Shown piece by piece: positions 1 through 37,706 of a DNA stretch of 64,000 nt. Both the position numbers and the translations under genes were made by a program. Under the pieces are notes generated by a model. It was not told where the DNA came from. It saw nothing but the letters and a program-made list of their open reading frames with translations, and made no database searches. The stretch covers positions 3,990-67,989 of the forward strand of contig SVRJ01000006.1 of NCBI GenBank assembly GCA_015064885.1, read 5' to 3'. The first letter of the stretch is position 1; every line of letters begins with the position of its first letter. This stretch comes from Oscillospiraceae bacterium (lineage in GTDB: Bacteria > Bacillota > Clostridia > Oscillospirales > CAG-272).

Positions 1-3000
1 TGCATAAAGCTCGGCTACCTGCTTTTCCATACGGACGGTCACGTTTGACATGCCCTTACTGTTAAGGTGGCTTATATCTCCTACCGCCTTTGAATAAAGC
101 TCACGGAAGGAAACGTCATTCATGTCGACTCCGGATATGCTTGTATCTGCGGCATTTATTATCGAAACGTAATCAAGCTTCAGCTGCTTTTGGTACTCTA
201 CCATCTTCATAGCGTAATTATACGTAACGTAGCTTGAATTGTCCTTGTAGTTCCACGGTGTTACAAGAATAATAAGAGCGTTCGGGTATTTCTTATGAAG
301 CCCCTCTATCATTATATTCAGCGCTCCGCATAAAGTTTTACTGTCTCTGCTATCAAAGTCACCGTAAGGAACCTTCTGATTTCTGTCGTTTCGTCCGCCC
401 TCAAGAATGATTATATCCGCATCGCCGTTCTGCATTGACGTATATCTTATTACCATCGGATTGTTTGTAGAAACGTTGGCTATAGTGCTTCCTCCGATAC
501 CGTAATTGATATGGGACATATTGTACTTTCTTGCTATCTCGGAGGGCCACGTATAATAATGGCCGAGACCCGAGCCCTGGAAATAACTATCACCTATAGC
601 ATACATGGTAAGGCCCTCGAGTATATCCGAGTAATAATTGCCCTCACTCTGAGTCTTCACGAGAGTCTTAAGCCCGTCTGCCGACGCCTTCTCGGCAGAA
701 AGCGACGCCGCAGTGTATTTTGAGATCTCGGTACTGTCTCCCACGTAGTACGTCTTCTCTCCGTTTATCGGATAAAGCGTGGTGAGATATGCGTACACCT
801 CAAAAAGAGCCTGACCGCTTGCATTCGTATATGCGCAAACAGTATTTTTGAGTTTTTCTCCCTTTGCCAGTGAATATGCACTTTCACTGTCTGTGAGAAG
901 GAGTGTAGAATAATCGTCGGGAGAATATCCCTCGTTCGTGCTTATCCTGCAGCTGTATTCCTTGTCTCCGACACTGATCTTTATCTCGCTTTCACCTTCA
1001 GAAATAAGAGCAGTATCTTCTGCGATAAATACAGGACACATTATAACGGGAATATTGGGAGATCCCTGAGATGCGCGTATTGAGAGTCTGACGTATTCGT
1101 TGTCCTTTCTCGAGGTGTATCTGAACACTCTGAAATTATGGTCGGAGGTAATATAGGTGTCAAGATCCTTGCTCTCGATTCCCCTCGGGGAAACTATTTT
1201 CTTACCCTCACTGTCCCAGAAGGAAAACGCATATCCTTCTGTTCCGAGATATGTGTACGCGTCGCTTCCTATCTTTGCGGTATCCATAAAGTATATAACG
1301 GTACCCGCCTTTTCGAGATGTATAACGTCACTGTAAAGGAAGCCGTCCTTACCCGCGTTAATACTGCCCGAGGAGGTAACGTATCCTCTGTTCCACGATA
1401 CGTCTATAGGCTTTATATTCTCGCTTACAAGGCCCTTGCTGTTTTCGAGGCTTCCTCTGAAGTATTCGTCGTAATCCGGAAACGCATTTTCCCAGGTTCC
1501 CTTGGCACCGCTCCCGATCTCTTTTATCGCTATTACCGGAACGTATGAGGTTCTGGATTTCTGCATTGTGAATCTGATATATTCATTATCATCCGACGTA
1601 ATATATTTATAGACAGACATATCGCTCTTTTCGTTGTAGGTCTCAAATACCGTATTTCCGGACGCAGGATTTCCTACAAAGGTAGCTTTGCTGTAATCTA
1701 CAGACTTTCCGTCAGCTCCGTATGAGGAGAGAACCGCTATATCGTCTCTTGCCGGATTCGCCACCATAACGATAACCTGCGTACCCGCCTTAGGAATATG
1801 TATTGCCTCGCTCACGATATGTTCCTCAAAAACGTCACCGATATCAACGCTCATACTATCGTTTACCGTATCAAGAGTCATAAGACCCTTTTTGCCCGAC
1901 TCTGTAAAAGGTGAAGAAACGTAACCGGGAAGCCAAAGGGTATCCGTAATATAGGTCATTTTTCCCGGCATCTCGGTGTGAAGCCTATCAAACGAACCCT
2001 TGAAATAGTTTTCGTCAACCTTATAAGTAATAGAAAGCGATTGATTTTCTGCGGGAACACAAAGTCTTATTATCTCATTATCAAATGAGGTCGTATACTC
2101 AAATTCATGAGATTTTCCGCCGTTTACCCTCTGTATTCCGTCCTTACCCGTAACTATGGCGTTATAGTTTGACGAACCGGTATTATTCTTGTAAAGTCCG
2201 TCCTCCGCAAGGTACCACGAGGTAAGAGATGCTACGTCGTATGAATACTCACCGCTTACGGTATACGTTATCGTAGTTCCTTTTTTGGGGATGACTATAT
2301 TCTGCGTGGTCTTAAATTCCGTATCCGAATAGTCAAGTGAAAGCTTATATCCCTTTGTGTTATTTATACTTCCCACACTTCCCGGAAGAAGGAGAACGTC
2401 GGTAGCAATACCCTGACCGCTTTCGGGTAGAGTATACGGAGTATCAAGCTTTGCGGTGGTAGCGTCTGAGGATCCGCTGCAGACGGAAACAGCTGCAGAT
2501 TCAGCTTGCCCTACAAACACGCATATACGCACGTATTCCACGTCTGCGCTTGTGGTATATGAATATGAGCCGTCGGTCGCTATAACGTAATCACACGGCT
2601 TGAATTGAGGAGCCCTTCTGTCAAGAGAATAGGTACCGTCTTTGTTATCGCTCCAATGCGAAATAACGAACACATTTTCCTTTCCCTCGGGGATTGCCTC
2701 GATTCCGCTGACAGAAAGAGTTATACCCTTACCGTCAAGCCGTACGATCTCGCTCGTATAGAATCCGCTTTCCTCATCCTCGACAAAAGCCCCCGAATGC
2801 GTAAGGCCGGAGAGTGTTTTTCCGTCTCCTATATTCTCAAAAGAGCCTACGTATCCCTTTTCCCATGAGAGTGTAAGCTCCTGAGGCTTTGGACTGAGAT
2901 GGTTTCCGTCTACTGTCGTAACATCACCCTCACCGTCCTTACACGAATAAAGGACCGCAGAAAGCAGGATACAAAGTGCAAGAGCAAATGCAGATCTTAT

Positions 3001-3012
3001 TATTTTTTTCAT
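1..3012 (-). CDS. Multidomain secreted lipoprotein with a C-terminal SGNH/GDSL-type hydrolase (esterase/lipase) domain. Partial: the C-terminus lies beyond the left edge.
   Basis: Not in the ORF track because there is no stop inside the window. My hand translation of the reverse strand is open from ATG 3012..3010 (AAAGGAG 7 nt upstream) down to base 1, which is 1004 codons. The N-terminus MKKIIIRSAFALALCILLSAVLYSC is a signal peptide with a lipobox-like Cys. The last ~200 aa carry the SGNH blocks: AIGDSYFQG (Ser codon 588..586), GIGGSTI, LEGGRND and DISH (Asp 78..76, His 69..67). Four divergent upstream modules each end in a (D)NE(Y/I)(V/I)R motif. Confidence 0.8.
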   Translation of the reverse strand, partial: MKKIIRSAFALALCILLSAVLYSCKDGEGDVTTVDGNHLSPKPQELTLSWEKGYVGSFENIGDGKTLSGLTHSGAFVEDEESGFYTSEIVRLDGKGITLSVSGIEAIPEGKENVFVISHWSDNKDGTYSLDRRAPQFKPCDYVIATDGSYSYTTSADVEYVRICVFVGQAESAAVSVCSGSSDATTAKLDTPYTLPESGQGIATDVLLLPGSVGSINNTKGYKLSLDYSDTEFKTTQNIVIPKKGTTITYTVSGEYSYDVASLTSWYLAEDGLYKNNTGSSNYNAIVTGKDGIQRVNGGKSHEFEYTTSFDNEIIRLCVPAENQSLSITYKVDENYFKGSFDRLHTEMPGKMTYITDTLWLPGYVSSPFTESGKKGLMTLDTVNDSMSVDIGDVFEEHIVSEAIHIPKAGTQVIVMVANPARDDIAVLSSYGADGKSVDYSKATFVGNPASGNTVFETYNEKSDMSVYKYITSDDNEYIRFTMQKSRTSYVPVIAIKEIGSGAKGTWENAFPDYDEYFRGSLENSKGLVSENIKPIDVSWNRGYVTSSGSINAGKDGFLYSDVIHLEKAGTVIYFMDTAKIGSDAYTYLGTEGYAFSFWDSEGKKIVSPRGIESKDLDTYITSDHNFRVFRYTSRKDNEYVRLSIRASQGSPNIPVIMCPVFIAEDTALISEGESEIKISVGDKEYSCRISTNEGYSPDDYSTLLLTDSESAYSLAKGEKLKNTVCAYTNASGQALFEVYAYLTTLYPINGEKTYYVGDSTEISKYTAASLSAEKASADGLKTLVKTQSEGNYYSDILEGLTMYAIGDSYFQGSGLGHYYTWPSEIARKYNMSHINYGIGGSTIANVSTNNPMVIRYTSMQNGDADIIILEGGRNDRNQKVPYGDFDSRDSKTLCGALNIMIEGLHKKYPNALIILVTPWNYKDNSSYVTYNYAMKMVEYQKQLKLDYVSIINAADTSISGVDMNDVSFRELYSKAVGDISHLNSKGMSNVTVRMEKQVAELYA

Positions 3013-3096
3013 TTTGGTATGCTCCTTTCAAAAAAGGCAGACGGGTATCCTTACCCATCTGCCAAGCTTTTCTTCACAAAGCTCGGTTACGAGCAA

Positions 3097-4362
3097 TTAT
3101 AAGAAGAACATTATTATAAACTGTGAGCAAAGCACTACCGATATAAGAGCTATCGGGTAAGTGGATGCGTAAGCCGCCGCAACGTCTTCTGTTCCGGCAA
3201 CGCTGATAAGCGTACCGAGGGCGGGAGTCGAGGTCATACCGCCGGTGATAGAACCGAGAGTATTGAGAAGGTTCAACTTAAGAATGAACTTTGCAAAGAT
3301 GAATCCTATTATCATAGGTACAAGTGTCATTACCGCACCGTAGAGGAAGTATACGGGCTGGAAGTACTGAACGAACTTTGCTCCGCCCGCAACACCCGCT
3401 CCGATAAGGAACATCATAAGTCCGAATTCTCTGAATACCTTAAGAGTCTGAACGGGAGGCATCACCTTGATAGGTCCGAAATGAGAGAAGTGACCGAAGA
3501 CGAGAGCTGTAAGCAGACATCCGCCTGTGGTCGTAAGCGAGAACGCACCGAATTTTATCGAGCCGAGGAGCATACCGATTATAGCGGCTATAGCGAAGGG
3601 GGCTATACCGAAGCCGTCTATTTCAATAAGCTTTCTTGTCTGCTTTGTCTCTATCGGTTCATCGCCCGAAGCGCCTGCGGACTTATCAGCTCCTGCGAGC
3701 TTTGCGCGTTCGGCCGCCATATCCGCTTTAAGAAACTTAGGAATAAGCTGAACGAAGAGAACAACTCCTATAACACCGAATATATAAGCGATACCGTTAC
3801 CCACAGATACCTTGTCTGCAAGCTCTGCGCCTACCGCTTCCTTTGCCGCCGAAAAAGCGGGTGTCGACGTGAGTGCTCCTGCAAAGAGTCCCACCATAAT
3901 AGAGATAAGGTCCTCCCTCGGAACGTCCATAGTAGAGAGTGCGATCGCGGTACATCCTACGCACGCAAGAGCGCCGGATACGATTATCACAACACCGAGA
4001 AGAATATATGTTTTAAAGTTGCGCTTAAGATCTCCAAAGAATTTGGGACCTGCAATAAAGCCAACTGAGGTTACAAAAAGAATAAGTCCTATATTTTCAA
4101 CTATCTTCAGAACGTTACCTGCATAGTTCTCGGGCTTTGCCATCCCTTCCGCCATCACAGTAAACTGTCCTTCAAAGAAAGAGTAAAAGAGAGCTCCGTA
4201 AAGAAGAGCTACGAGAAAAACGCCCGCAGTGCCGAGGTTGACACCCTTTATCGTTATTCTGCCGACGAGATAACCGACTGCCGCTATAGCGAGCAAAGAA
4301 AAAACAAGAAACGAAACGCCCTTTACTGAAAGCTCAACGGCGCCGAATTTTATAAGTTCCAT
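3097..4362 (-). CDS. AAE-family (aspartate:alanine exchanger, YidE/YbjL-type) dicarboxylate carrier. Short form without the central TrkA-C domains.
   Basis: 421-aa polytopic membrane protein with two homologous halves (GVNLGTAGVFLVALLYG / SLTTTGGCLLTALVFGHF) joined by a ~40-aa charged linker. A GGAGG RBS lies 6 nt before the ATG at 4362. It sits directly downstream of the frdA-like gene. Confidence 0.7.
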   Translation of the reverse strand: MELIKFGAVELSVKGVSFLVFSLLAIAAVGYLVGRITIKGVNLGTAGVFLVALLYGALFYSFFEGQFTVMAEGMAKPENYAGNVLKIVENIGLILFVTSVGFIAGPKFFGDLKRNFKTYILLGVVIIVSGALACVGCTAIALSTMDVPREDLISIMVGLFAGALTSTPAFSAAKEAVGAELADKVSVGNGIAYIFGVIGVVLFVQLIPKFLKADMAAERAKLAGADKSAGASGDEPIETKQTRKLIEIDGFGIAPFAIAAIIGMLLGSIKFGAFSLTTTGGCLLTALVFGHFSHFGPIKVMPPVQTLKVFREFGLMMFLIGAGVAGGAKFVQYFQPVYFLYGAVMTLVPMIIGFIFAKFILKLNLLNTLGSITGGMTSTPALGTLISVAGTEDVAAAYASTYPIALISVVLCSQFIIMFFL

Positions 4363-4401
4363 TTAAATGCCTCCGATAGATCAGTTATAATAGTTTACGC
4401 A

Positions 4402-4433
4402 ACGCACACCCTGCCTCTCGGCAGGGCGTGCGT
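4402..4433 (-). promoter_or_regulatory. Intercistronic GC-rich stem-loop between the frdA-like gene and the carrier gene. It has no U-tract.
   Basis: acgcacaccctgcc-tctc-ggcagggcgtgcgt forms a 14-bp stem with one mismatch or wobble. It sits in the only sizeable gap (91 nt) of the cluster. Neither strand has a T-run after it. Confidence 0.4.
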
Positions 4434-4453
4434 ATATTTAGCGTAAGATAGGA

Positions 4454-6085
4454 TCACTTTGCTTCGAACTTGGGGTTTCCGTGTGTATATCTGGGAAGAA
4501 GTATGGGAGATACCTTATCCGTCTTGATACCTGCTTCCGCAAGCTCCTTTGCAAAGTCGTCAACGTGAGAAAGCGTGAGCTTTCCTACAGTAGTATTCTT
4601 TGCAGCAAGTGCCGCATTTACACCTGCGTTTCTACCAAATACGATAATATCGAGGAGCGAGTTACCCATAAGTCTGTTCTCACCGTGGATACCGCCGACA
4701 GCCTCACCTGCAACGAAGAGGTTTTCAACGTCGGACATACCGTTTGCACCTATCTTGATACCGCCGTTCTGATAGTGGAGAGTGGGGTATATAAGGATAG
4801 GCTGCTTGCGCATATCTATACCGTACTTGAGATACATACGCATCATAGCGGGAATTCTCTTCTCGATAGTTCCCTCTCCGTGGAGCTTTTCTATCATCGG
4901 AGAGTCGAGCCAGATTCCGTAACCGCCATCGGGTGTCTTAACGCCCTTTCCTCTTTCCTTGCATTCACGAATAATGGATGCAGCCGAAACGTCACGTGTT
5001 TCGAGAGGATTCATAAATGCTTCGCCGTCAGCATTGATAAGCTGTGCACCGATAGATCTTACCTTCTCTGTAACGAGAGCACCGAAGATCTGAGAGGGGT
5101 ATGCAACGCCCGTCGGGTGATACTGAAGCGTGTAAGCGTAAAGGAGAGGAGCACCTGCTCTGTAAGCGAGAACGAGACCGTCTGCTGTTGCACCGTAGTG
5201 GTTTGATGTCGGGAAGCCCTGATAGTGCATACGGCCCGCACCGCCCGTAGCGATAACTACAGTCTTTGCTCTTGCTATTCTGATCTCCTTGGTCTCCATG
5301 TTGAGGAGGACAGCACCTGCCGCCTTACCATCTTCATCCTTGATGATCTCGATAGCTGCCGTAAAATCAACTACCGTGATATTTCTGTTTATTACCTCGT
5401 CACGGAGAACTCTCATGATCTCTGCGCCCGAGTAGTCCTTACATGCGTGCATTCTCTTTCTGGAGGTACCGCCGCCGTGAGTTGTAACCATTGTTCCGTC
5501 AGGCTCTTTATCAAACATAACGCCGAGGTCGTTGAGCCACTTTATAGAGCTCGGACCCTCTGTTACGAGCTTTTCGAGGAGCTCGGGAACGTTCTTGAAG
5601 TGACCGCCTCCGAGAGCGTCGATATAGTGGATAGCGGGAGAGTCGTTCGGCTTATCCGCTGCCTGAATACCGCCCTCAGCCATCATGGTGTTTGCGTCAC
5701 CGTGGCGGAGCTTTGTAACGATCATAGCGTTTGCTCCGTTCTCGTGAGCCATAATAGCAGCTGCGCTTCCCGCACCGCCGCCACCGATTATAAGAACGTC
5801 AACGTCATAATCGGGGTTTGAGAGATCAATATCCGCGGGGTTGATCCTGCTGTTAGCCTGAAGAATATCCGCAAGCTCGAGCGGAACCTTTTCTCCCTTG
5901 TTGGGACCCATCTTAAGGGTTGCGAACTGAGAGGTAATGTGGTCGGGATGGAAAGCCGCAAGAACTGCTTCCTTCTCATCTGCGGTCATACGGCGGGGGT
6001 TTTCTCCGGCGTTTACCTTGGCAAGTCTCGCTTCACGAGTTGCTTCAACCTTTTTTATAGATTCGAGCATATCCTGTGTATACAT
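4454..6085 (-). CDS. Fumarate reductase/succinate dehydrogenase-superfamily flavoprotein (FrdA/TfrA-like, soluble type)
   Basis: 543 aa. FAD dinucleotide fold VDVLIIGGGGAGSAAAI. By-eye alignment to E. coli FrdA retains QYHPTG, TEKVRS (catalytic Arg), PTLHYQNGG and GENRLMGNSL. AAGGAGGAA RBS. Confidence 0.8.
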   Translation of the reverse strand: MYTQDMLESIKKVEATREARLAKVNAGENPRRMTADEKEAVLAAFHPDHITSQFATLKMGPNKGEKVPLELADILQANSRINPADIDLSNPDYDVDVLIIGGGGAGSAAAIMAHENGANAMIVTKLRHGDANTMMAEGGIQAADKPNDSPAIHYIDALGGGHFKNVPELLEKLVTEGPSSIKWLNDLGVMFDKEPDGTMVTTHGGGTSRKRMHACKDYSGAEIMRVLRDEVINRNITVVDFTAAIEIIKDEDGKAAGAVLLNMETKEIRIARAKTVVIATGGAGRMHYQGFPTSNHYGATADGLVLAYRAGAPLLYAYTLQYHPTGVAYPSQIFGALVTEKVRSIGAQLINADGEAFMNPLETRDVSAASIIRECKERGKGVKTPDGGYGIWLDSPMIEKLHGEGTIEKRIPAMMRMYLKYGIDMRKQPILIYPTLHYQNGGIKIGANGMSDVENLFVAGEAVGGIHGENRLMGNSLLDIIVFGRNAGVNAALAAKNTTVGKLTLSHVDDFAKELAEAGIKTDKVSPILLPRYTHGNPKFEAK

Positions 6086-6098
6086 ATTGGCTTCCTCC

Positions 6099-6773
6099 TT
6101 ACTTTTCTATCTCTCTCGTATTGTAAAGCTCCTTGAGCTCCTCGAGAGGCTTCTGCATAAGCGATTCAACGAGTGCCTTGAAGTCACCGTTGAGTATCTC
6201 CTGAACTCTTGCCTCGAGATGCTCTGAGGTGGGAGCGAGATACTTACCCGTAAGTCTGCGGGCAAGCATACCTACCTGAGGATGTGTGATACCCGCAGGA
6301 CAACGGGAGGAGCAGACTCCGCACATTACGCAGTCGAATGACTCCTCTGCGCAAGCCTCGAGATCGCCTCTCTGAGCGTATGCTATGTACTGCATTACGT
6401 TAAGGCCCTGAGTACATACCTTTGTACAAGCGTTACAGCCTATACAGGAATATATCTCGGGATAGAGCTGCATCATAACGCGCTCTGTGGGCTTTACGTT
6501 TTCGATGTCGTACGGCTGCTTTACAAGCGGGAAGAAAGGAAGTGTTGCAACGTACATATTGTCTTCGACCTGTGTCTGACAAGCGAGGCACGCCTTGAGC
6601 TCTCTGTCTCCCTTTATTCTGTAGATCGTTGCGCAAGCTCCGCAGAAGCCGCAACGGCATCCGCATCCGCGAACGAGCTGATATCCGGCATATTCCATAG
6701 CGCCCATTATTGTGAGGCTTGCCGGTACTGTATACTGTTTACCGAAAAGGTATACGTTAACTGTTTGTTCCAT
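6099..6773 (-). CDS. FrdB/SdhB-like iron-sulfur subunit (2Fe-2S-like N-terminal domain plus two 4Fe-4S motifs)
   Basis: 224 aa. Cys cluster CGCRCGFCGACA...CLAC followed by CIGCNACTKVC and CVMCGVCSSRCP. It ends 13 nt before the frdA-like start. Confidence 0.7.
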   Translation of the reverse strand: MEQTVNVYLFGKQYTVPASLTIMGAMEYAGYQLVRGCGCRCGFCGACATIYRIKGDRELKACLACQTQVEDNMYVATLPFFPLVKQPYDIENVKPTERVMMQLYPEIYSCIGCNACTKVCTQGLNVMQYIAYAQRGDLEACAEESFDCVMCGVCSSRCPAGITHPQVGMLARRLTGKYLAPTSEHLEARVQEILNGDFKALVESLMQKPLEELKELYNTREIEK

Positions 6774-6809
6774 TATTTGCGTTTCCTTTCAAATCAAGAT
6801 TGCAGATCA

Positions 6810-7643
6810 TCAATATTCATCCGGAAGCTCTCCGAGCTCATCGCAACGGAATACCGGTCCGTCCTTACATACGTACTTGTCGCCGATGTTGCAGCGTCCG
6901 CACTTACCGACGCCGCACTTCATCTTAAGCTCCATAGTCGTAAACACCTGGGTCTTGCTGAAGCCCATTTCCATAAGTCCCTGAAGAGTGAACTTGATCA
7001 TTATGGGAGGACCGCAGAGAAGGACTGTTTTGTTTGTCGGGAATTCAAGCTCCTTTACGTAGCTGGGAACGAATCCTACGTGGCCGTCCCAACCGTCCTG
7101 AGGACGGTCTATTGTGAGGTGAACGTCAACGCCCGCCTCGTTCATCCATTCGTCGATGATCTCCTTATAGTCAACGAGGTCATCCATAGAACGCGAACCG
7201 TAAACGATATCTATCTTTCCGTATCTGTCGCGATAGTGGCGGCAGTAATTGATAACCGAACGGAGAGGAGCAAGTCCGATACCGCCCGCGATAAAGAGGA
7301 GATCCTGTCCTTTAAGAGCAGTATCAACGGGAAAAGCATTTCCGTAGGGGCCTCTTATCGTTATCTGCTGACCTACGTCCATGAGGTGGAGCCAATTTGT
7401 AAGGCATCCGCACTTCTTTATACTGAACTCCATATACTCGGTATTTGTGGGAGAAGAGGTTATAGAGAACATAGCCTCACCCACACCGGGGATAGAGAGC
7501 ATTGCGCACTGACCGGGCATATGCTCAAAGCACTTTCCCTTTCCGTCAGCCGAAACCACTCTGAAGGTCTTTACGTCGGGGGTATCTATTCTGATATCGG
7601 TAACGACGCCTAACATAGGTATGAGAGTATCATTCTGTATCAT
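6810..7643 (-). CDS. FAD/NAD(P)H-binding oxidoreductase with a C-terminal [2Fe-2S] (FlxA / AsrB / HydG / PyrK family)
   Basis: 277 aa. NAD-binding motif LLFIAGGIGLAPLRSV. C-terminal KCGVGKCGRCNIG cluster motif typical of the PyrK/AsrB type. Its start overlaps the stop of the upstream gene (ATGA). Confidence 0.75.
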   Translation of the reverse strand: MIQNDTLIPMLGVVTDIRIDTPDVKTFRVVSADGKGKCFEHMPGQCAMLSIPGVGEAMFSITSSPTNTEYMEFSIKKCGCLTNWLHLMDVGQQITIRGPYGNAFPVDTALKGQDLLFIAGGIGLAPLRSVINYCRHYRDRYGKIDIVYGSRSMDDLVDYKEIIDEWMNEAGVDVHLTIDRPQDGWDGHVGFVPSYVKELEFPTNKTVLLCGPPIMIKFTLQGLMEMGFSKTQVFTTMELKMKCGVGKCGRCNIGDKYVCKDGPVFRCDELGELPDEY

Positions 7644-8674
7644 TCTGCTTTACCTCCTTTGGCAAGCTCGCGGATAACACCCGCTATGTTCTTTGATACG
7701 GGGCAGGACGCCACGCATCTTCCGCAGCCTACGCAACCGAATATTCCTTCATTATTATTAGGATAATATACGAGCTTATGCATAAATCTCTGGCGGAAGC
7801 GTTCTGTCTGAGTAAGTCTGGGGTTTCCGTGCGCCATCTTTGTAAAGTCTGAATACATGCAGCTGTCCCAGCATCTGAATCTCTTTACTCCGTGACCGGT
7901 GTCGAACTCTCTTATATCATAGCACTGACACGTGGGGCAAACGTAGGTACACGTTCCGCAGCCGAGGCAGGCTTCTGACATATGGAGCCACTTGTCCGAA
8001 TAGAAGAGCTCCTTAAGCTCCTTGTCACTGATCTTATCGAGAGGAAGATCCGCAAGGGGAAGCTTATCAAGTATCTTTTTAGTATTGTTCTTTGTTTCGG
8101 TAAGCTCGCTTGCATCTGCGTCCTCGCATACAGAGTCGATAGCCGCGCAAAGCTCGTTTGCCTTATCGCTGTTACACTCAATATAGAGGTAGTCGCCGCT
8201 TATCCATGCACACGCATCTGCATCGGGCTCTGTGGGGTCTATTCCGAAGGCGGTGCAGAAGCAGGTCTCGGCAGGTCTTGTGCATGCGAGAGAAACGATT
8301 ATACCGTTCTCGCGGCGTGTCTTATAGAACGAGTCGACCGGATCTGTGAGGAATACTCTGTCGAGTATTTTCGTGCTTGCCGCATCGCACGCGCGAACAC
8401 CGAAGACTACGTACTTTTCGTCAAGGTCCTCTTCTACGGAAGGAAGGATCTCTATATTCTTACCGTCCACCTTAAAGTCAACTATGTTTTCGCTCTGGGG
8501 GAAGTAGAAATCCTTTACCGATCTTCCGCTGTTCACGTAATCGTAAGTAAGCTCTCCTTCACCGAATTTTTTGAATTCAACGCTATGCTCGCACTTTGTG
8601 GGAACGTAGAGGTTTCTCGTCTCCGCTATTTTTTCAAAGAGGGCGGAAGCGTTTGAAAGTTTGATCTTTTTCAT
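7640..8674 (-). CDS. Iron-sulfur protein of the AsrA / HydB / FlxB type (2x[4Fe-4S])
   Basis: 344 aa. Motifs CLGCGTCTYVCPTCQCYD and CVGCGRCVASCP. It is a paralogue of the next gene upstream. TGATG stop/start overlap at 8674. Confidence 0.7.
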   Translation of the reverse strand: MKKIKLSNASALFEKIAETRNLYVPTKCEHSVEFKKFGEGELTYDYVNSGRSVKDFYFPQSENIVDFKVDGKNIEILPSVEEDLDEKYVVFGVRACDAASTKILDRVFLTDPVDSFYKTRRENGIIVSLACTRPAETCFCTAFGIDPTEPDADACAWISGDYLYIECNSDKANELCAAIDSVCEDADASELTETKNNTKKILDKLPLADLPLDKISDKELKELFYSDKWLHMSEACLGCGTCTYVCPTCQCYDIREFDTGHGVKRFRCWDSCMYSDFTKMAHGNPRLTQTERFRQRFMHKLVYYPNNNEGIFGCVGCGRCVASCPVSKNIAGVIRELAKGGKAE

Positions 8675-9660
8675 CAGCAGTTACCTCTTTCCTTAACTAT
8701 GCTCGGCTCCGCATCTTCCTGAGTAAACGTGAGGAGAGGGGGCTTGCTTTCGCTGTCTTCTCCCGATACGTACTCGCCGTAAAGCTCGTTGTAGTCTTTG
8801 ATAAACTTACGGTTGAGAAGCTGGAGAGGTATGTTCTGGGGACATACGCGTGAGCATTCTCCGCAGTCTGTACATCTTCCGGTAACGTGGAACGCACGGA
8901 TTATGTGGAACATATTCTCTTCGAAGGTATCGGTATTTGCCTTTGACGCTATTCCCGAATCGTCGTTATCGAATACGCACTTTATGCACGAGCAAGCGGG
9001 GCAAACGTTTCTGCACGCGTTACATCTGATACAACGTGAGAGCTGCTCTCTCCAGTATTCAAATCTCTCGTCAGCCGTCATTTCCTCGAGTCTTGCGACC
9101 TCGGAGAATCTGTCGGCACCGACCGTCTTTGTGTTTTCTTCATTGAGCACGATAGTCTCGTCCGCTATCTTGTGCTCCTTACCCTTACAGCAGAGGCATC
9201 TTTCAAGGAGGAGCTCGCCCTTCTCGAAGGTCTCGTCACCGTAAAGAGTCTTCACGGTGACGGTGTCACCGTTGTCTTCAAAGCCGACAAGACCTGTGAG
9301 GCCTTTGGCTCTTATCTTGTTCACGTCAAGGTTGCCTGCACACTCAACACCTACAACGTAAAGCTTTTCTCTGTCAACTCTGTGCTCACGGATAAGAGCG
9401 TTTATAGAGTACGTATCGCAGGGCTTTGCAAATACGAGGATCTTTCCCTCCTTTGCACACTCACGAATGAGATATTTTGCAAGGTTGGGGCCGCAGAAAT
9501 CATCGTATACGAGCTCCTCGAGCTCCTCTGCGCTTTCAAAAACTGCGGGAGTGCTTTCATAGAAGAACTCTCCCCTCTTCCAACCGAGAACACATCTTAC
9601 CTGTCCTTCTGCCAGAAGCTTTGCAGCCTTTTCCTTCATTACAGAAATTATTTCTTGCAT
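8674..9660 (-). CDS. Iron-sulfur protein of the AsrA / HydB / FlxC type (2x[4Fe-4S])
   Basis: 328 aa. Motifs CIRCNACRNVCPACSCIKC and CTDCGECSRVCP. Its start overlaps the mvhD-like stop by 13 nt. Confidence 0.7.
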   Translation of the reverse strand: MQEIISVMKEKAAKLLAEGQVRCVLGWKRGEFFYESTPAVFESAEELEELVYDDFCGPNLAKYLIRECAKEGKILVFAKPCDTYSINALIREHRVDREKLYVVGVECAGNLDVNKIRAKGLTGLVGFEDNGDTVTVKTLYGDETFEKGELLLERCLCCKGKEHKIADETIVLNEENTKTVGADRFSEVARLEEMTADERFEYWREQLSRCIRCNACRNVCPACSCIKCVFDNDDSGIASKANTDTFEENMFHIIRAFHVTGRCTDCGECSRVCPQNIPLQLLNRKFIKDYNELYGEYVSGEDSESKPPLLTFTQEDAEPSIVKERGNC

Positions 9661-10088
9661 CTGAGGTCCTCCAATCTCTTGTTCTCACCGAGTTCTGTTA
9701 TCTGTGCAACGAATTCGTTCATCGTTGCCGCAAATTTTGCGCCTTCGGCAGCAGAAATCCATTCAACTCTCGTTCTTTCTCTTTCTATTCCGAGATAATC
9801 GAGCATAGAGAAGAGGAGAGTCATTCTGCGGCGCGCATAGTAGTTACCTGTTGAATAGTGGCAGTCTCCGGGGTGGCATCCTGCGATGATAACTCCGTCT
9901 GCGCCCTTCTGGAAGGCACGGAGAATAAACATCGGGTTTACACGGCAGGAGCAGGGCACGCGGATTACCTTTACGTTTGCGGGATAGTTAAGTCTTCCCG
10001 TTCCGGCAAGGTCTGCGCCCGCATACGAGCACCAGTTACAGCAGAAAGCAACTATCTTAGGCTGAAAATTCTTTTCGTTTACTTGCAT
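9648..10088 (-). CDS. mvhD: MvhD/FlxD-like protein (methyl-viologen-reducing hydrogenase delta-subunit family)
   Basis: 146 aa. Hallmark motifs KIVAFCCNWCSYAGADLAG and AGCHPGDCHY. Its ATG overlaps the hdrA stop by 10 nt. Confidence 0.85.
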   Translation of the reverse strand: MQVNEKNFQPKIVAFCCNWCSYAGADLAGTGRLNYPANVKVIRVPCSCRVNPMFILRAFQKGADGVIIAGCHPGDCHYSTGNYYARRRMTLLFSMLDYLGIERERTRVEWISAAEGAKFAATMNEFVAQITELGENKRLEDLRCKK

Positions 10089-12064
10089 ATTGCATCTACC
10101 TCCGCCATGATCTGTTTATTAGAGAAGCCGTTGAGGTTCATTGCTCCGGAAGGACAAGCTACCGTACATGCTCCGCAACCGTGGCATACTGCAGGGTTGA
10201 CAGAGGCTACGCGGCGTGTTTCGATCTTTCCGGCGATCCTGAACTCTTTATTTGAATATGTGATAGCACCGTAGGGGCATACCTTTTCACAGCAGGAGCA
10301 TCCGTTACAGAGCATTTCATCGCTTATGGCAACGCACGGGTCTGTGGTAAGCTTATCCTTAGCGAGAAGTCCTATTACCTTAGCTGCTGCGGCACCTGCC
10401 TGAGCAACCGTTTCGGGGATATCTCTCGGTCCCTGGCAGGTACCCGAAAGGAATACGCCTGCCGTCGGGCTTTCTACCGGACGGAGCTTTGCGTGTGCTT
10501 CCGTGAAGAAATCGTTCGTATCCATGCTTGCGGTGAGCTTTGTAGCGAGGGCTCTTGCTCCGTCGCTCGGCTCAATAGCTGTAGCGAGAACTACCATATC
10601 TGCCGCAACACAGATCTTTTCATCATTGATAAGGTCGCTTGCGTCAACGAGAAGCTTGCCGTCGACGTCATGGATCTTACCTACCATACCCTTGATATAA
10701 TGTACTCCGTATTCTTCAACAGCTCTGCGCTGGAATTCGTCAAAGCCCTTACCGGGAGTACGAACGTCTATGTAGAATACGTAAACGTCTGTATCGGGAT
10801 ATTTTTCTCTTGTAAGCATTGCGTGCTTTGCCGTGTACATACAGCATATCTTCGAGCAGTACGGCTTTCCGCAGCCGGAAGTGTCTCTCGAGCCTACGCA
10901 CTGAATGAATACTACAGTATGAGGATGGGCGTTATCCGAGGGGCGGAGAAGCTTTCCGCCTGTAGGACCTGCCGCATTTGTTATTCTTTCGAATTCAAGG
11001 CTGGTGATAACGTCGGGGCAGCGAGAGTAAGCATACTCGTCAAAGTTTTCAAGAGATATCGGCTTGAAGCCTGTAGCCACGACGATAGCGCCGTACTGTC
11101 TTGTCTCTATGCTGTCCTTCTGCGCAAAGTCTATAGCCTTTACTCCGCAGACCTTTTCGCAAAGTCCGCATTTGCCCGTCTTGAGCTTTATACACTGTGT
11201 CTCATCGATAACGGGAACCTTCGGAATAGCCTGAGCGAAGGGGATATATATCGCGCCTCTCTTCTTGAGTCCCATATTGAACTCGTCAGAGCCCTTTCTC
11301 GAGGGGCATTTTTCGGTACAGAGTCCGCATCCGGTACAGAGGTCCTCTCTGACGTGTCTTGCCTTTCTGCGGATATCGACCGTAAAGTTACCTACGAAGC
11401 CTTTTACGTTCTCTACCTCGCTGTAGGTCATAATATTTATCTTCTCGTGCTGAGCCGCATCGACCATCTTAGGTGTGAGGATACACGCCGAGCAGTCGAG
11501 GGTCGGGAAGGTCTTATCTATCTGAGCCATACGGCCGCCGATGGTGGGAGTTTTTTCAACGATATCCACCTCGTATCCGGCATCCGCTATATCGAGAGCG
11601 GTCTGTATACCTGCGATACCGCCGCCTATAACGAGCGCGCGCTTTACTACCGGGCTTTCTCCGGGATAGAGAGGAGCGTTGAGATTTACCTTAGCTATTG
11701 CGGCACGTCCGAGGATGATAGCCTTGAGAGTTGCGTCGCCCATGTCCTTATGTATCCAGGAGCACTGCTCTCTTATATTTGCGATCTCTACCATGTACGG
11801 GTTAATTCCCGCAACGGCTGCCGCCTTTCTGAACGTCGCCTCGTGCATACGGGGAGAACAGGAACATACGACTACTCCGTCGAGCTTATGTTCCTTTACC
11901 GAATTGACTATAAGCTGCTGTCCGCTTTCCGAGCACATATACTGATAGTTGTAGGAGCATACTACACCCGGCTCGTGGCTGAGCGCCTGCGCTACCTTTT
12001 CAACGTCTACAGTACCTGCTATGTTCGTTCCGCACCAGCAGACGAAAACACCTATTCTCTGCAT
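10079..12064 (-). CDS. hdrA: Heterodisulfide reductase subunit A-like flavoprotein (HdrA)
   Basis: 661 aa. N-terminal Cys domain (VFVCWCGTNIAG). FAD fold ALVIGGGIAGIQTALDIADAGYEVDIVEK...TLDCSACILTPKM. Several CxxCxxCxxxCP ferredoxin motifs. AAGGAG RBS. Confidence 0.9.
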   Translation of the reverse strand: MQRIGVFVCWCGTNIAGTVDVEKVAQALSHEPGVVCSYNYQYMCSESGQQLIVNSVKEHKLDGVVVCSCSPRMHEATFRKAAAVAGINPYMVEIANIREQCSWIHKDMGDATLKAIILGRAAIAKVNLNAPLYPGESPVVKRALVIGGGIAGIQTALDIADAGYEVDIVEKTPTIGGRMAQIDKTFPTLDCSACILTPKMVDAAQHEKINIMTYSEVENVKGFVGNFTVDIRRKARHVREDLCTGCGLCTEKCPSRKGSDEFNMGLKKRGAIYIPFAQAIPKVPVIDETQCIKLKTGKCGLCEKVCGVKAIDFAQKDSIETRQYGAIVVATGFKPISLENFDEYAYSRCPDVITSLEFERITNAAGPTGGKLLRPSDNAHPHTVVFIQCVGSRDTSGCGKPYCSKICCMYTAKHAMLTREKYPDTDVYVFYIDVRTPGKGFDEFQRRAVEEYGVHYIKGMVGKIHDVDGKLLVDASDLINDEKICVAADMVVLATAIEPSDGARALATKLTASMDTNDFFTEAHAKLRPVESPTAGVFLSGTCQGPRDIPETVAQAGAAAAKVIGLLAKDKLTTDPCVAISDEMLCNGCSCCEKVCPYGAITYSNKEFRIAGKIETRRVASVNPAVCHGCGACTVACPSGAMNLNGFSNKQIMAEVDAICK

Positions 12065-12075
12065 AGCTTCTCTCC

Positions 12076-12471
12076 TTACTTATTGTACTTTCTCATTGCC
12101 GACATGAGTGCCTGTCCGGGTATCTCATCGTCAAGCTTTGACGGTATCTCATCCTGCTTCATATAGGAAGCTCCCTGCTGTCTGAGATATACCGCTCTTG
12201 CCGCCTCCGCTATCTTTGCGGGCTTTACGTCTCTCGGGCAACGCTCGAGACATGCAAAGCAGGACATACACTTGTATATTCCCTTGGAGGTTGCAAGCTC
12301 CTCTACTCTTTCGTCGAGGACCATCTGCGCGAACTTGTGGGGATGTATCTCCATTTCATCGAATGCGGGGCATGCCGCGGAGCATTTACCGCACTTCATG
12401 CATTTTTCGGGATGAGCTCCGCTTATTCTCAAAACGAGCTTCTTCAGTTCTGTTTTATTACTGCTGTGCAT
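12076..12471 (-). CDS. hdrC: Heterodisulfide reductase subunit C-like protein (2x[4Fe-4S])
   Basis: Motifs CMKCGKCSAACP and CMSCFACLERCP. I moved the start to ATG 12471 (MHSSNK...), which has an AAGGAGGAG RBS. The longer track ORF (to 12501) would overlap hdrB. Confidence 0.85.
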   Translation of the reverse strand: MHSSNKTELKKLVLRISGAHPEKCMKCGKCSAACPAFDEMEIHPHKFAQMVLDERVEELATSKGIYKCMSCFACLERCPRDVKPAKIAEAARAVYLRQQGASYMKQDEIPSKLDDEIPGQALMSAMRKYNK

Positions 12472-12481
12472 ACGCTCCTCC

Positions 12482-13291
12482 TTACTTCGCCTCAGAAACA
12501 CCGAGTGCTTCTGCGATGAGTTCTGTTATATAGTATGTTGGAAGCTTTGCTTTATCTCCGCCGTGTACAAGATTGTACATACAGAGCGGGCAGGCTGTTA
12601 TGAGAGAATCCGCGCCCTTATCCGCAGCGCTTTCTCTTACCGCGTCGGCACGCTTTGCCGCATAGCCTCTGTCATCGAGCACGGTGTAGCCTCCGCAGCA
12701 TTCGTTTCTCATCGAATATACCACGGGATCTGCACCGAGTGCCTTAACAAGGTCTTCCATAATTTTCGGATTTTCAGGGTTGTCGAAGTTCATTTCCTTC
12801 GAGGGACGGAGGAGCATACATCCGTAATAGGGTGCTACCTTTCTTCCCTTAAGAGGATTTACGACGTTTGCCTTGAGTGTATCAAAGCCTACCTTGTCTC
12901 TGAGAAGCTCAAGGTAGTGAATGACCTCGGTCTCTCCGTTATAGGGAACCTCAAGTCCGAGATAGCTGTTTACTCGTTCTCTTATGTACGCATTGTTCTT
13001 CATATCCTCGTTAACAAGCTTGATAACGTGGTGGCAAGCAGAACACAGCGTAACGAGCGGACGGCCTGCGTCTCTTGCGGAAACGAGTGCGCGGATCGCG
13101 GGAAGTCTGGGGGCTATTTCATCCTCGTTCATCGGATAGACAGCTCCGCAGCACTGCCATTCGGGGATCTCCTCGAGAGTAATGCCAAGCTTTTCGCAAG
13201 AGAGTCTTGCGTATTTGTCAAGATCCTTCGCTTTGTTCTTGAGAGTACAGCCGGGATAGTAACTGTATATCATAGTTTTCTTTATACCCAC
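12482..13291 (-). CDS. hdrB: Heterodisulfide reductase subunit B-like protein (two CCG domains)
   Basis: 269 aa with two complete CCG signatures: YPGC...CCGAVYP...CSAC and YYGC...CCGGYTV...CPLC. The start is ambiguous. GTG 13291 has a GGAGGG ~13 nt upstream, and ATG 13273 is the alternative. Confidence 0.85.
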   Translation of the reverse strand: MGIKKTMIYSYYPGCTLKNKAKDLDKYARLSCEKLGITLEEIPEWQCCGAVYPMNEDEIAPRLPAIRALVSARDAGRPLVTLCSACHHVIKLVNEDMKNNAYIRERVNSYLGLEVPYNGETEVIHYLELLRDKVGFDTLKANVVNPLKGRKVAPYYGCMLLRPSKEMNFDNPENPKIMEDLVKALGADPVVYSMRNECCGGYTVLDDRGYAAKRADAVRESAADKGADSLITACPLCMYNLVHGGDKAKLPTYYITELIAEALGVSEAK

Positions 13292-13409
13292 TGTGGGTAT
13301 ATTTCCCTCCGGTTAGTTTATTTTTTTGATATTTTCACGGGCAAATTAACCCGAGCAGGCGGTGAGAGCATAAAACCCCCACCGCCGCGGTGTACCGGTA
13401 GCAAATAGA

Positions 13410-14801
13410 TCAGACCATCTGCTCCGGATGGAATACTTCGTCAAATTTCTCTGCTGTAAGGAATCCGAGCTCTACGCAAGCTTCCTTAAGCGAGCAATTG
13501 TCCTTGAATGCCTTCTTAACTGTCTTTGCGGCGTTCTCATAACCGATGTAGGGGTTAAGAGCTGTAACAAGCATAAGAGAGTTGTGGAGGTTGTTGTGCA
13601 TCTTTGCTCTGTCTGCAACGATACCTACAGCACACTTGTTGTTGAAGGATACGATAGACTCTGCAAGGAGACGTGCGGACTGAAGGAAATTGTAGATACA
13701 AACGGGCATGAATACGTTAAGCTCGAAGTTACCCTGCGAAGCTGCCATACCTACTGCTACGTCGTTACCCATTACCTGTACTGCAACCATTGTTGCCTGC
13801 TCGCACTGTGTGGGGTTTACCTTACCGGGCATGATAGAAGAACCGGGCTCATTCTCGGGGATCTTGATCTCACCGAGACCTACGCGGGGACCTGAAGCGA
13901 GCCATCTTACGTCGTTTGCGATCTTCATCATATCAGCTGCGAGAGCCTTGAGTGCTCCGTGAGCAAATACGAGCTCGTCCTTGGAGGTAAGAGCGTGGAA
14001 CTTGTTCTCTGCCGTTACAAAATGCTTACCTGTGATCTCGGAAATAGCCTCTGCTACCTTAACGTCAAAGCCCTTGGGGCAGTTAAGACCTGTACCGACT
14101 GCCGTTCCGCCGAGTGCGAGCTCGGAGAGGTAAGGAAGAGCGGACTCAAGCATTGCTCTGTCTCTTTCAAGAGAGGTTCTCCAGCCGGAGATCTCCTGGG
14201 AGAACTTGATAGGTGTTGCGTCCTGAAGGTGTGTTCTTCCGCTCTTTACTATGTCGTCGTTTTCAGCTTCAAGTCTCTTGAAGGTGTCAACGAGAAGGTC
14301 GATAGCGGGGAAGACCTTATCCTCGATAGCTATCTTTGCCGCTATGTGCATAGCTGCGGGGAACGTATCGTTAGAGCTCTGGCTCATATTGATATCATCA
14401 TTGGGGTGAAGAGGCTTTTCAAGAGAAGCGCCTGCTATCTCTGTTCCTCTGTTGGCGATAACCTCGTTAGCGTTCATGTTGGACTGTGTGCCCGAGCCTG
14501 TCTGCCAAACGACGAGCGGGAAATGGTCGTTGAGCTTGCCGCTGATGACCTCATCGCATGCCGCAGATATAGCCGCGAGCTTTGCGTCTGTCATCTTTTC
14601 GGGCTTAAGGCTGTTGTTTGCGATAGCGCAAGCCTTCTTAAGAACACCGAAAGCGTGTGTTATTTCTCTGGGCATAGTCTCGATGCCTACGCCTATAAGA
14701 AAGTTTTCATGGCTTCTCTCTGTCTGAGCTGCCCAATATTTGTCGGCGGGTACTTTAACCTCGCCCATAGAGTCTTTTTCGATACGATACTCCTGTGCCA
14801 T
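13410..14801 (-). CDS. fumC: Class II fumarate hydratase
   Basis: 463 aa. Lyase-1 family signature [16 protein letters not shown]-terminal [35 protein letters not shown]. Confidence 0.95.
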
Positions 14802-14862: not shown

Positions 14863-14891
14863 ATTATATCATAAACAAAAGAAAAAGTAAA
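14863..14891 (-). promoter_or_regulatory. Sigma-A-type promoter for fumC and probably the whole hdr/flx/frd cluster
   Basis: The reverse strand reads TTTACT, a 17-nt spacer, then TATAAT with an extended -10 TG (tatgaTATAAT). It lies ~60 nt upstream of the fumC ATG. Confidence 0.6.
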
Positions 14892-15005: not shown

Positions 15006-15034
15006 TTGACAAGAGAGGCGTTTTGTGGTATAAT
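15006..15034 (+). promoter_or_regulatory. Sigma-A-type promoter preceding the TPP riboswitch
   Basis: TTGACA (15006-15011), 17-nt spacer, tgtggTATAAT (15029-15034). Confidence 0.7.
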
Positions 15035-15057
15035 AAAGCGAAGAATAAAATATCGCA

Positions 15058-15146
15058 CATATTCGGGGGTGCTTTTGTAGCTGAGACGGTGCTTCGCGCC
15101 GAACCCTTTGACCTGATACGGATAATGCCGTCGTAGGGAGAAGTCG
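15058..15146 (+). promoter_or_regulatory. TPP (THI-box) riboswitch aptamer
   Basis: Contains the conserved GGGGUGC ... CUGAGA ... ACCCUUUGACCUGAUACGGAUAAUGCCGUCGUAGGGA, which matches the thiM/thiC-type THI element almost position for position. It lies upstream of a thiamine transporter gene. Confidence 0.9.
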
Positions 15147-15168
15147 CAGAATTATTTTCTGCCGTTTT

Positions 15169-15198
15169 ACCGCACGGATACCGTGCGGTATTTTGTTT
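15169..15198 (+). terminator. Riboswitch expression-platform terminator
   Basis: accgcacgg-ata-ccgtgcggt followed by attttgttt. It lies between the aptamer and the thiT RBS (GGAGGAAAAAACAAA-ATG). Confidence 0.75.
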
Positions 15199-15233
15199 AT
15201 CTTCAAGTATAACAAAGCGGAGGAAAAAACAAA

Positions 15234-18272: not shown

Positions 18273-18293
18273 GCAAAACCTTTGGAGCTCTTT

Positions 18294-20638: not shown

Positions 20639-20671
20639 TAATATCCGCGTGGATATAAAACGGAGATACAC

Positions 20672-22989: not shown

Positions 22990-23007
22990 CATACGAAAGG
23001 CATCAAA

Positions 23008-25447: not shown

Positions 25448-25541
25448 ATACAAATAGATATTCTTTTTTAACACATACAGCAATTGAGATATTAACTTAT
25501 AGAATCACAAATACTATTTATACCTACAAGGAGGTAAACAG

Positions 25542-37700: not shown

Positions 37701-37706
37701 ATATAG

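Follow-up and report, generated by a model that had tools for sequence, protein, structure and literature searches.

On the minus strand of a 64 kb window (64 000 nucleotides of contig SVRJ01000006.1 from an Oscillospiraceae bacterium; 'the window' here always means this whole stretch), between positions 3097 and 14801, lie 11 genes joined by short or overlapping junctions, as taken from the list of open reading frames (ORFs) and their coordinates. In order they are fumC, hdrB, hdrC, hdrA, mvhD/flxD, flxC, flxB, flxA, a FrdB-like gene, a FrdA-like gene and the gene of an AAE-family carrier, so that a fumarase, a set of Hdr and Flx proteins, a fumarate reductase-like pair and a transporter are encoded side by side. 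The ORFs and coordinates of the original prediction, which had been made from the sequence alone, were confirmed, and Pfam and NCBIfam profile searches agree with every gene name it had proposed. It had counted 12 genes in this interval, where we count 11; the twelfth co-directional gene may, at a guess, have been the GDSL-lipase lipoprotein gene at 1–3012 (minus strand), which lies outside the interval.

The four overlaps claimed earlier are exact (10, 13, 1 and 4 nt), and the statement that no junction from hdrB to frdA exceeds 36 nt holds, the range being −13 to +36 nt with non-overlapping gaps of 11, 36 (flxA–frdB) and 13 nt; longer gaps separate fumC from hdrB (118 nt) and frdA from the carrier gene (91 nt). 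One start was corrected: translation of hdrC most likely begins at ATG 12471, which stands behind a perfect Shine–Dalgarno sequence (TAAGGAGGAGCGT), the alternative being the upstream GTG 12501, and with this start hdrB is followed by a 10 nt gap instead of a 20 nt overlap. Upstream of fumC there is a promoter-like site (14863–14891, minus strand; TTTACT-17-TATAAT with an upstream TG), the best minus-strand match between 2500 and 15400 by consensus only, and 3' of the carrier gene an intrinsic-terminator-like hairpin with a 12 bp stem and a T run (3036–3063, minus strand). The site and this strong terminator together suggest, at the level of sequence, a single transcription unit of about 11.8 kb. 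The only canonical promoter had been placed upstream of fumC; the best minus-strand site is indeed found there, but because the scan returned 17 sites against a chance expectation of 13.1 ± 4.1, it carries little weight and proves little. As had also been predicted, no ORF for a FrdC/FrdD-type membrane anchor occurs in 3097–14801, where the short junctions leave no room for one, and none was seen in the related loci; on these grounds we rejected the idea that the operon encodes a classical membrane-bound Frd whose anchor had escaped notice.

The first gene, fumC (13410–14801, minus strand, as are all genes of the operon), encodes a class II fumarate hydratase of 463 amino acids (aa) with Lyase_1 and FumaraseC_C domains, which passes the curated class II fumarase cut-off (TIGR00979, 698.6 bits against 664.75). 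The last, the carrier gene (3097–4362; 421 aa), encodes two Asp-Al_Ex domains (199 bits) without TrkA_C domains and scores 130.7 bits with YidE_YbjL_dupl, for which the cut-off is 71.95; we infer that its product probably exports succinate or exchanges C4-dicarboxylates.

Between them, hdrB (12482–13291; start at GTG 13291 or ATG 13273) encodes a 269 aa protein with two CCG motifs, each in its own domain. This protein scores 148 bits with the SdhE model and 142 bits with the HdrB model TIGR03288, under the cut-off in both cases, and matches the HdrB chain of PDB entry 7bkb (7bkb_B, E 1.8e-34); none of its 10 CCG cysteines is lost in any of 57 orthologues. HdrC (12076–12471; 131 aa from ATG 12471, in a frame open to GTG 12501) has two [4Fe-4S] sites, whose eight cysteines are all present in each of 55 orthologues. 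The flavin/Fe–S subunit HdrA (10079–12064; 661 aa) aligns over its full length (residues 3–658) with the methanogen HdrA structure 5odc_A at 650 bits, reaches 779 bits with the HdrA2 model (cut-off 1100) and has invariant cluster cysteines; HdrA is the bifurcating subunit in methanogen Hdr. The [2Fe-2S] connector encoded by mvhD/flxD (9648–10088; 146 aa; FlpD, 191 bits) aligns with the C-terminal MvhD part (positions 642–774) of the HdrA2 fusion model.

Three further genes complete the Flx set. The product of 8674–9660 (328 aa) has conserved cysteines and only generic dicluster ferredoxin matches, and is placed as FlxC from its position in the operon. The FlxB-like Fe–S protein (7640–8674; 344 aa), which is HydB/AsrA-like, matches Fer4_22 at 104 bits and stays below the cut-offs of ShyB (164 bits), HydB (143 bits) and AsrA (130 bits). 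FlxA (6810–7643; 277 aa) is an AsrB/HydG-like FAD/NAD(P)H/[2Fe-2S] reductase with FAD_binding_6, NAD_binding_1 and DHODB_Fe-S_bind domains, and its [2Fe-2S] ligands C243, C248, C251 and C259 are found in 73 of 73 orthologues. FlxB and FlxC had been described as two paralogous polyferredoxins; their similarity is marginal (E 1e-4, 21% identity over the ferredoxin part), and we do not retain them as close paralogues. Throughout the orthologous operons, the cluster-binding cysteines of HdrA, HdrB, HdrC, MvhD, FlxA–C and FrdB are invariant.

The FrdB–FrdA pair

The FrdB-like Fe–S subunit (6099–6773; 224 aa) carries a [2Fe-2S] motif (C39, C44, C47 and C65) and two four-cysteine ferredoxin motifs, and these four cysteines together with eight more are invariant even at 31% identity. 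Its N-terminal part matches the TfrB model (E 1.2e-10). We assign it as FrdB from these motifs, from weak profile matches, from its constant adjacency to FrdA and from a natural FrdB::FrdA fusion (P0123). No CCG domain was found in FrdB by Pfam and NCBIfam scans or in the family alignment; the CCG domains are on the separate HdrB. The TfrB model is tiled by FrdB (positions 19–92), HdrC (124–219) and HdrB (266–485), and because of this piecewise coverage FrdA, FrdB, HdrC and HdrB resemble a Tfr split into four chains.

The FrdA-like flavoprotein (4454–6085; 543 aa; FAD_binding_2, 223 bits) consists of FAD and capping domains preceded by a conserved N-terminal extension of about 92 aa, and gives no Succ_DH_flav_C match, the C-terminal helical domain being missing. 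TfrA is its best NCBIfam model (NF004900, 335.4 bits against a cut-off of 718), followed by Sdh/Frd (TIGR01812, 270.7 against 567) and NadB (TIGR00551, 264.5 against 452.75), so that every model remains far under its cut-off. Ten family members, the most distant at 38% identity, were aligned; H323, E340, R343, R364, H437 and R471 are invariant among them and align with catalytic and binding residues of Escherichia coli SdhA and Mycobacterium smegmatis Sdh1; the dicarboxylate-binding and proton-transfer residues of the classical Frd/Sdh enzymes are thus present. The histidine that binds FAD covalently (His45 of SdhA) is replaced by Asn132, which is likewise invariant in the family. In Frd/Sdh enzymes a non-covalent FAD supports fumarate reduction and not succinate oxidation, and the presence of Asn132 at this position, which implies a non-covalent flavin, fits the reductase direction.

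An AlphaFold model of FrdA built with 68 sequences has a pLDDT of 94.9 and a pTM of 0.93, the N-terminal extension included. Its top structural matches are E. coli FrdA (1kf6_A; E 2e-36, TM 0.71), SdhA and the flavocytochrome c3 fumarate reductases, the alignment with FrdA extending over about 448 columns only. Residues 1–92 are predicted, at a pLDDT above 90, to form two helices, two short strands and one helix, and contain the family-invariant H46, P47, G60 and G64. This extension has no counterpart in solved Frd, Sdh or NadB structures; it may substitute for the lost C-terminal domain or touch FrdB. Judged by sequence, FrdBA is a distinct family characterized by non-covalent FAD, loss of the C-terminal domain and the conserved N-terminal extension.

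The NadB score of FrdA lies near its Sdh/Frd score, neither cut-off being reached, and on this account one might take the protein for an L-aspartate oxidase or for a reductase of another unsaturated acid. We regard this as very improbable. The position of E. coli NadB Glu121, which we take to be the conserved glutamate typical of L-aspartate oxidase, is occupied in FrdA by His204 and is variable in the family; in the structural ranking FrdA and SdhA come first and NadB is 37th; the neighbourhood holds neither nadA nor nadC; and the operon is linked to a fumarase that occurs in two non-orthologous forms (see below). That FrdA might belong with L-aspartate oxidase or another non-fumarate enzyme had been raised together with the original prediction, and was rejected on the residues, the fold ranking and the fumarase linkage.

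Orthologous operons and the wider FrdA family

A genome scan that considered one genome per species, and of which the closest loci were listed, returned at least 80 loci (L001–L080), so that at least 80 species-level genomes carry the operon. Most of the records stem from gut samples of humans, ruminants and other animals. Among the 80 matches listed, FrdA is 71–86% identical to the window protein, the hosts are nearly all gut or rumen Clostridia, including Christensenella tenuis NSJ-35 (locus L014) and an assembly of Ruminococcus flavefaciens, and the nearest are a genome of Candidatus Flemingiibacterium and one of Acutalibacteraceae. Each of the 56 related loci with enough upstream sequence has all nine genes of the core hdrB-hdrC-hdrA-mvhD-flxC-flxB-flxA-frdB-frdA in this same order, a recurrence that puts the arrangement far beyond chance. 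The flanking genes are less constant, fumC adjoining hdrB in 42 of 54 related loci and the carrier gene adjoining in 45 of 64. The FumC proteins of L001–L080 have a mean identity to that of the window within the range 74–82%.

Where fumC is missing from the loci examined (L046 and L079), a two-subunit class I Fe–S fumarate hydratase is encoded downstream and an Ldh/Mdh-family gene upstream. Because one fumarase has here been replaced by a non-orthologous one, the operon is indicated to be a module of the reductive branch, and we consider the replacement strong evidence that the substrate of FrdBA is fumarate.

Flavin-based bifurcation is reversible in principle, and the same proteins could be read as a confurcating succinate dehydrogenase that runs in reverse (succinate + reduced ferredoxin → fumarate + 2 NADH), as syntrophic propionate oxidizers would need; for Syntrophobacter, Hdr/Flx and fumarate reductase are reportedly treated in one context (PMC5947623). 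Considering that the asparagine in place of the covalent-FAD histidine disfavours succinate oxidation, that the hosts ferment in gut and rumen and include known succinate producers (PMC7174568), and that the Ldh/Mdh-family gene and fumarase linked to the operon form a reductive-branch pattern, we find this direction hardly credible.

More distant FrdA relatives retain the N-terminal extension and occupy other gene contexts. In marine Gammaproteobacteria (Thiotrichales-type assemblies; L081–L083) a frdB-frdA-NuoF-like trio with overlapping junctions occupies 9366–12891 (plus strand); its FrdA shares 48% identity with the window protein and has the extension, and this three-gene unit is a candidate minimal soluble NADH:fumarate reductase. 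In a further context a 2-oxoacid:ferredoxin oxidoreductase is followed by hdrA-mvhD-hdrC-hdrB-frdB-frdA without flx genes, and a bare frdB-frdA pair or a FrdB::FrdA fusion is also found within the family. One marine assembly (L086) carries at 8001–10357 (plus strand) a FrdA/FrdB pair of the same family with 41% identity (P0285), near which no Hdr, Flx or NuoF genes were found; a cluster mate of P0285 is annotated from Prochlorococcus sp. MIT 1201.

A metagenome scan with a 57%-identical FrdA member as query gave 79 loci, and the counts that follow are over the 30 with at least 6 kb of upstream sequence. Hdr genes lie within 10 kb in 29 of these, so that Hdr genes accompany frdBA in all 56 related and in 29 of 30 environmental loci. 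A gene for HdrB directly precedes frdB in 15 of the 30, 15 encode a Kor-type oxidoreductase and five have flxA, and four-gene hdrC-hdrB-frdB-frdA units exist among them. Environmental loci of the same FrdA family that carry kor genes were found (L084, L091–L155); a partial ORF at the edge of L084 is not recognizably a flx gene. In six loci (L138, L139, L123, L154, L167 and L168) several HdrA-like genes, mvhD and a weakly FlxC-like gene stand before frdB-frdA, which suggests still more variants of the donor module for the same reductase.

Proposed electron transfer to fumarate and ferredoxin

The best explanation of these findings is that the locus provides the enzymes for the final two reactions of the reductive branch that ends in succinate, along with a soluble electron supply that does not depend on quinones, and it is highly likely that it represents a fumarate-to-succinate module served by Hdr/Flx. 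Of what had been predicted, the cytoplasmic NAD(P)H-linked fumarate reductase on an Hdr/Flx core is the best-supported part, through its residues, its flavin, the synteny, the exchange of fumarases and the Hdr association; reduction of ferredoxin is the part that is inferred only, and here we lean, with some reserve, towards a complex that bifurcates electrons to ferredoxin.

The complex itself, its donor, each of its electron-transfer steps and the bifurcation are deduced from gene content, and we suggest that they could operate as follows. FumC would convert malate to fumarate, and FrdA, with a non-covalent FAD and a complete dicarboxylate site, would reduce fumarate to succinate with electrons passed on by FrdB through its [2Fe-2S] and two [4Fe-4S] clusters, FrdB in turn being fed by HdrC and HdrB. 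NADH would be oxidized at FlxA, and its electrons would travel via FlxB, FlxC and FlxD (MvhD) to the flavin of HdrA, which is most likely the site of bifurcation. From there the downhill electron would reach the flavin of FrdA, and then fumarate, by way of HdrC, HdrB and FrdB, and the uphill electron would reach ferredoxin through the ferredoxin domains of HdrA, giving the net reaction 2 NADH + Fd(ox) + fumarate → 2 NAD+ + Fd(red) + succinate. The reduced ferredoxin could drive Rnf or a hydrogenase, so that fumarate reduction would yield energy for a quinone-free bacterium, and the AAE carrier would export succinate or exchange it for a C4-dicarboxylate. The crotonyl-CoA couple drives the established Bcd–Etf bifurcation. 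Given potentials of +33 mV for fumarate/succinate, −320 mV for NADH and −10 mV for the crotonyl-CoA couple (PMC5861303), the driving force that fumarate offers exceeds that of the latter.

Whether HdrB hands its electrons to FrdB directly is the point at which a different arrangement has to be weighed. The CCG sites of methanogen HdrB reduce a disulfide, and all 10 CCG cysteines are kept in the HdrB of this operon, so that a diffusible thiol carrier is conceivable: Flx–Hdr would reduce ferredoxin and, at HdrB, a low-molecular-weight or DsrC-like disulfide, and FrdBA, as a second enzyme, would reoxidize the thiols with fumarate in the manner of methanogen Tfr with CoM-SH and CoB-SH. Published models do invoke thiols or a DsrC-like protein (PMC7282089; PMC11636981), and TfrA is the top NCBIfam match of FrdA at 335 bits. 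The CCG domain that forms the thiol-oxidizing site of TfrB is, however, missing from FrdB, which leaves FrdBA with no recognizable thiol site of its own, and the junctions of the operon leave no room for a carrier gene. Moreover, the position of hdrB directly before frdB in half of the environmental loci and the hdrCB-frdBA units are a better fit to one wired enzyme; these units, the tiling of TfrB and the SdhE-like score of HdrB favour a direct Fe–S wire from HdrC/HdrB into FrdB/FrdA. We therefore consider two enzymes linked by a thiol/disulfide couple quite unlikely.

A second question is whether ferredoxin is reduced at all. The NuoF-like loci described above pair FrdBA relatives with a single NADH module, a soluble five-subunit NADH-dependent fumarate reductase is described for Hydrogenobacter thermophilus in PMC13147460, and electron transfer from NADH to fumarate is strongly exergonic by itself (−58 kJ/mol; PMC13147460). 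The operon could then encode a plain, non-bifurcating soluble NADH:fumarate oxidoreductase in which Hdr/Flx serves as a wire only. Against this, every orthologous operon encodes a full-length HdrA with all ferredoxin-domain cysteines together with MvhD, which would make for a costly wire, and in Pseudoclostridium thermosuccinogenes, which carries an operon of the same composition, succinate production collapses under high H2 (PMC7282089). Such suppression by H2 is expected if fumarate reduction generates reduced ferredoxin, and we judge the non-bifurcating alternative to be unlikely.

Several observations count against a bifurcating fumarate reductase complex and are gathered here. HdrB retains both complete CCG sites, all subunits fall short of the curated equivalog cut-offs of the Hdr, Tfr and Frd models, and over the comparison of L001–L080 with the window proteins HdrB, HdrC, FlxB and FlxC average 51–58% identity as against 74–82% for HdrA, MvhD, FlxA, FrdB and FrdA. 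Since FrdBA also occurs with a NuoF-like NADH module only, or alone, bifurcation is not intrinsic to FrdBA. Finally, full-text literature searches found no biochemical, genetic or structural demonstration, and a 2026 survey treats a bifurcating Hdr-Flx/tfrAB complex as a suggestion (PMC13147460).

Considering the family as a whole, we propose, as an idea whose chances we put at even, that FrdBA belongs to a general and modular class of Hdr-dependent soluble fumarate reductases with the core HdrC–HdrB–FrdB–FrdA and interchangeable donors, of which the clostridial version would be truly bifurcating. The donor module may be Flx with NADH in gut and rumen Clostridia; sediment bacteria and symbionts would use a Kor-linked Hdr, and marine Gammaproteobacteria a bare NuoF-like module. 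Were this so, fermenters that lack quinones would possess a kind of fumarate respiration that operates by way of ferredoxin and either Rnf or a hydrogenase.

Should the proposed reaction take place, it would add to flavin-based electron bifurcation a class with fumarate as the high-potential acceptor. It would account for the energy that succinate-forming Clostridia lacking quinones and cytochromes draw from the reduction of fumarate, and for the response of their succinate output to H2. The operon is of consequence for the supply of succinate and propionate, for hydrogen balance and methane in gut and rumen, and for the engineering of succinate production, and its kor-linked relatives matter for how efficiently the reverse tricarboxylic acid (TCA) cycle runs. 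What makes the locus valuable is that it offers a clearly delimited and common object for the biochemistry that is still missing.

Neighbouring features and comparison with known systems

Beyond the terminator (3063–3036) an ORF of at least 1004 codons occupies 1–3012 (minus strand), runs off the left edge of the window and begins with a lipoprotein signal peptide (MKKIIRSAFALALCILLSAVLYSC); on an identical metagenome contig it encodes a 1018 aa protein with a GDSL-lipase domain. Because the ORF lister omits ORFs that run off the window, 1–3036 looks gene-free, but a 3 kb gene-free stretch is an artefact, the interval being taken up by this lipoprotein gene; no Rfam match was found in 1–3036. 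Divergent from fumC, a thiamine-transporter unit occupies 15006–15830 (plus strand), with a promoter-like site that matches the consensus perfectly (TTGACA-17-TATAAT, 15006–15034), a thiamine pyrophosphate riboswitch (15055–15156, 72.4 bits), a terminator-like hairpin (15168–15190) and a ThiT/YuaJ-type thiamine transporter gene (15234–15830), all on the plus strand. A shikimate row at 18282–26897 (plus strand) encodes 3-dehydroquinate synthase, 5-enolpyruvylshikimate-3-phosphate synthase, chorismate synthase, an unassigned 399 aa ORF and a shikimate dehydrogenase::shikimate kinase fusion, and is followed by a citrate synthase gene (25542–26897, plus strand; NF010635, 691 bits). A ribosomal protein L10 leader lies at 37694–37848 (plus strand; Rfam RF00557, 54.4 bits), and the gene of initiation factor IF-2 is among the other scanned ORFs of the window. 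The scanned ORFs, which cover part of the 64 kb window, include no genes for Rnf, hydrogenase, phosphoenolpyruvate carboxykinase or quinone synthesis.

Among the known systems, the MvhAGD–HdrABC complex of methanogens (structures 5odc, 7bkb, 8rvu) shares with the window a full-length HdrA and HdrB, HdrC and MvhD with all cluster ligands. The two differ in that the operon of the window has no MvhA/MvhG hydrogenase genes, the Flx (NADH) genes standing in their place, and in that CoM-S-S-CoB is not expected in a bacterium, the terminal acceptor here probably being fumarate. By analogy, the window core probably works as a bifurcating core in the same way. The same seven protein types make up FlxABCD–HdrABC of Desulfovibrio vulgaris, for which PMC7282089 and PMC5861303 cite Ramos et al. 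2015. The structural hallmarks of that system, namely the FlxA domains, FlxB and FlxC with an MvhD-like FlxD, and HdrA, HdrB and HdrC, are all found in one operon of the window, where the gene order is mirrored (hdrBCA-flxDCBA). The acceptor proposed for D. vulgaris is a DsrC-type disulfide, whereas in the window a fumarate reductase is attached.

On the side of the reductase, TfrAB of Methanothermobacter (Heim et al. 1998, cited in PMC6315080) offers in TfrA the best model for FrdA and in TfrB one that is covered piecewise. The equivalog score is not reached (335 against 718 bits), FrdB of the window lacks the fused CCG domains, and FrdA differs by its N-terminal extension and by the missing C-terminal domain. 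With FrdABCD and SdhABCD the window enzyme shares the dicarboxylate residues, and differs from them in having no anchor subunit, no covalent-FAD histidine and no C-terminal helical domain; from L-aspartate oxidase NadB it is set apart by both the equivalog score and the absence of the conserved glutamate. The type E succinate:quinone oxidoreductases and MFR, with their CCG subunit SdhE, which in type E enzymes docks on SdhAB, are relevant since HdrB scores equally with the SdhE and HdrB models (148 and 142 bits), and this shows that direct docking of a CCG protein on the AB pair of an Sdh or Frd is possible. These enzymes are membrane-associated and quinone-linked, whereas the CCG protein of the window is accompanied by HdrC, HdrA and MvhD. 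A quinone-independent enzyme of H. thermophilus was reportedly purified by Miura and co-workers in 2008, with another subunit set, scattered genes and no report of HdrA/MvhD or of bifurcation; these subunit details are not used as evidence here. PMC13147460 describes the H. thermophilus enzyme as a soluble five-subunit NADH-dependent fumarate reductase consisting of a FrdA/FrdB pair and extra subunits.

Combinations of Hdr-Flx with a fumarate reductase have themselves been reported. In tubeworm symbionts and in Thioflavicoccus mobilis, korABCD and tfrAB are interleaved with flxABCD-hdrABC and assigned to the reverse TCA cycle (PMC6315080), and a homologous Hdr-Flx/tfrAB cluster was found in 2024 to be co-expressed in Endoriftia (PMC11636981). 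As in the window, an anchor-less two-subunit fumarate reductase accompanies flxABCD-hdrABC in the symbiont clusters, and a bifurcating complex was proposed; in contrast, these also hold a 2-oxoglutarate:ferredoxin oxidoreductase and serve CO2 fixation, whereas the window has fumC and the carrier gene and no kor genes, which fits fermentation.

The closest counterpart is the 'succinate operon' of P. thermosuccinogenes (CDQ83_RS03365 to RS03315), described by Koendjbiharie et al. 2020 (PMC7282089), a paper which cites a 2019 preprint (10.20944/preprints201912.0288.v1). Its 11 genes are the same, namely those for a fumarate hydratase, seven Flx–Hdr proteins, two fumarate reductase subunits and a putative succinate transporter; they follow the same order, the orthology resting on the paper's description. 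They are co-transcribed and co-regulated and rise about 4-fold at low CO2, and the same hypothesis, electrons from NADH to fumarate plus ferredoxin, was put forward for them (PMC7282089). The hosts differ, P. thermosuccinogenes being a thermophile and the window host belonging to a gut Clostridia lineage near Flemingiibacterium/Acutalibacteraceae. The novelty attributed to the locus in the original prediction was thus overstated, both the operon and the hypothesis having been published (PMC7282089) alongside related clusters (PMC6315080, PMC11636981, PMC13147460), whereas its statement that no characterized enzyme has this exact subunit set agrees with the literature found, which consists of genomic, transcriptomic and co-expression proposals. 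The operon and its hypothesis are already in print, and the window locus adds no principle beyond the earlier proposals; what the present analysis adds to them is the distribution over at least 80 species-level carriers, the argument from fumarase replacement, the definition of the FrdBA family, and the association of that family with Hdr proteins while the donor changes.

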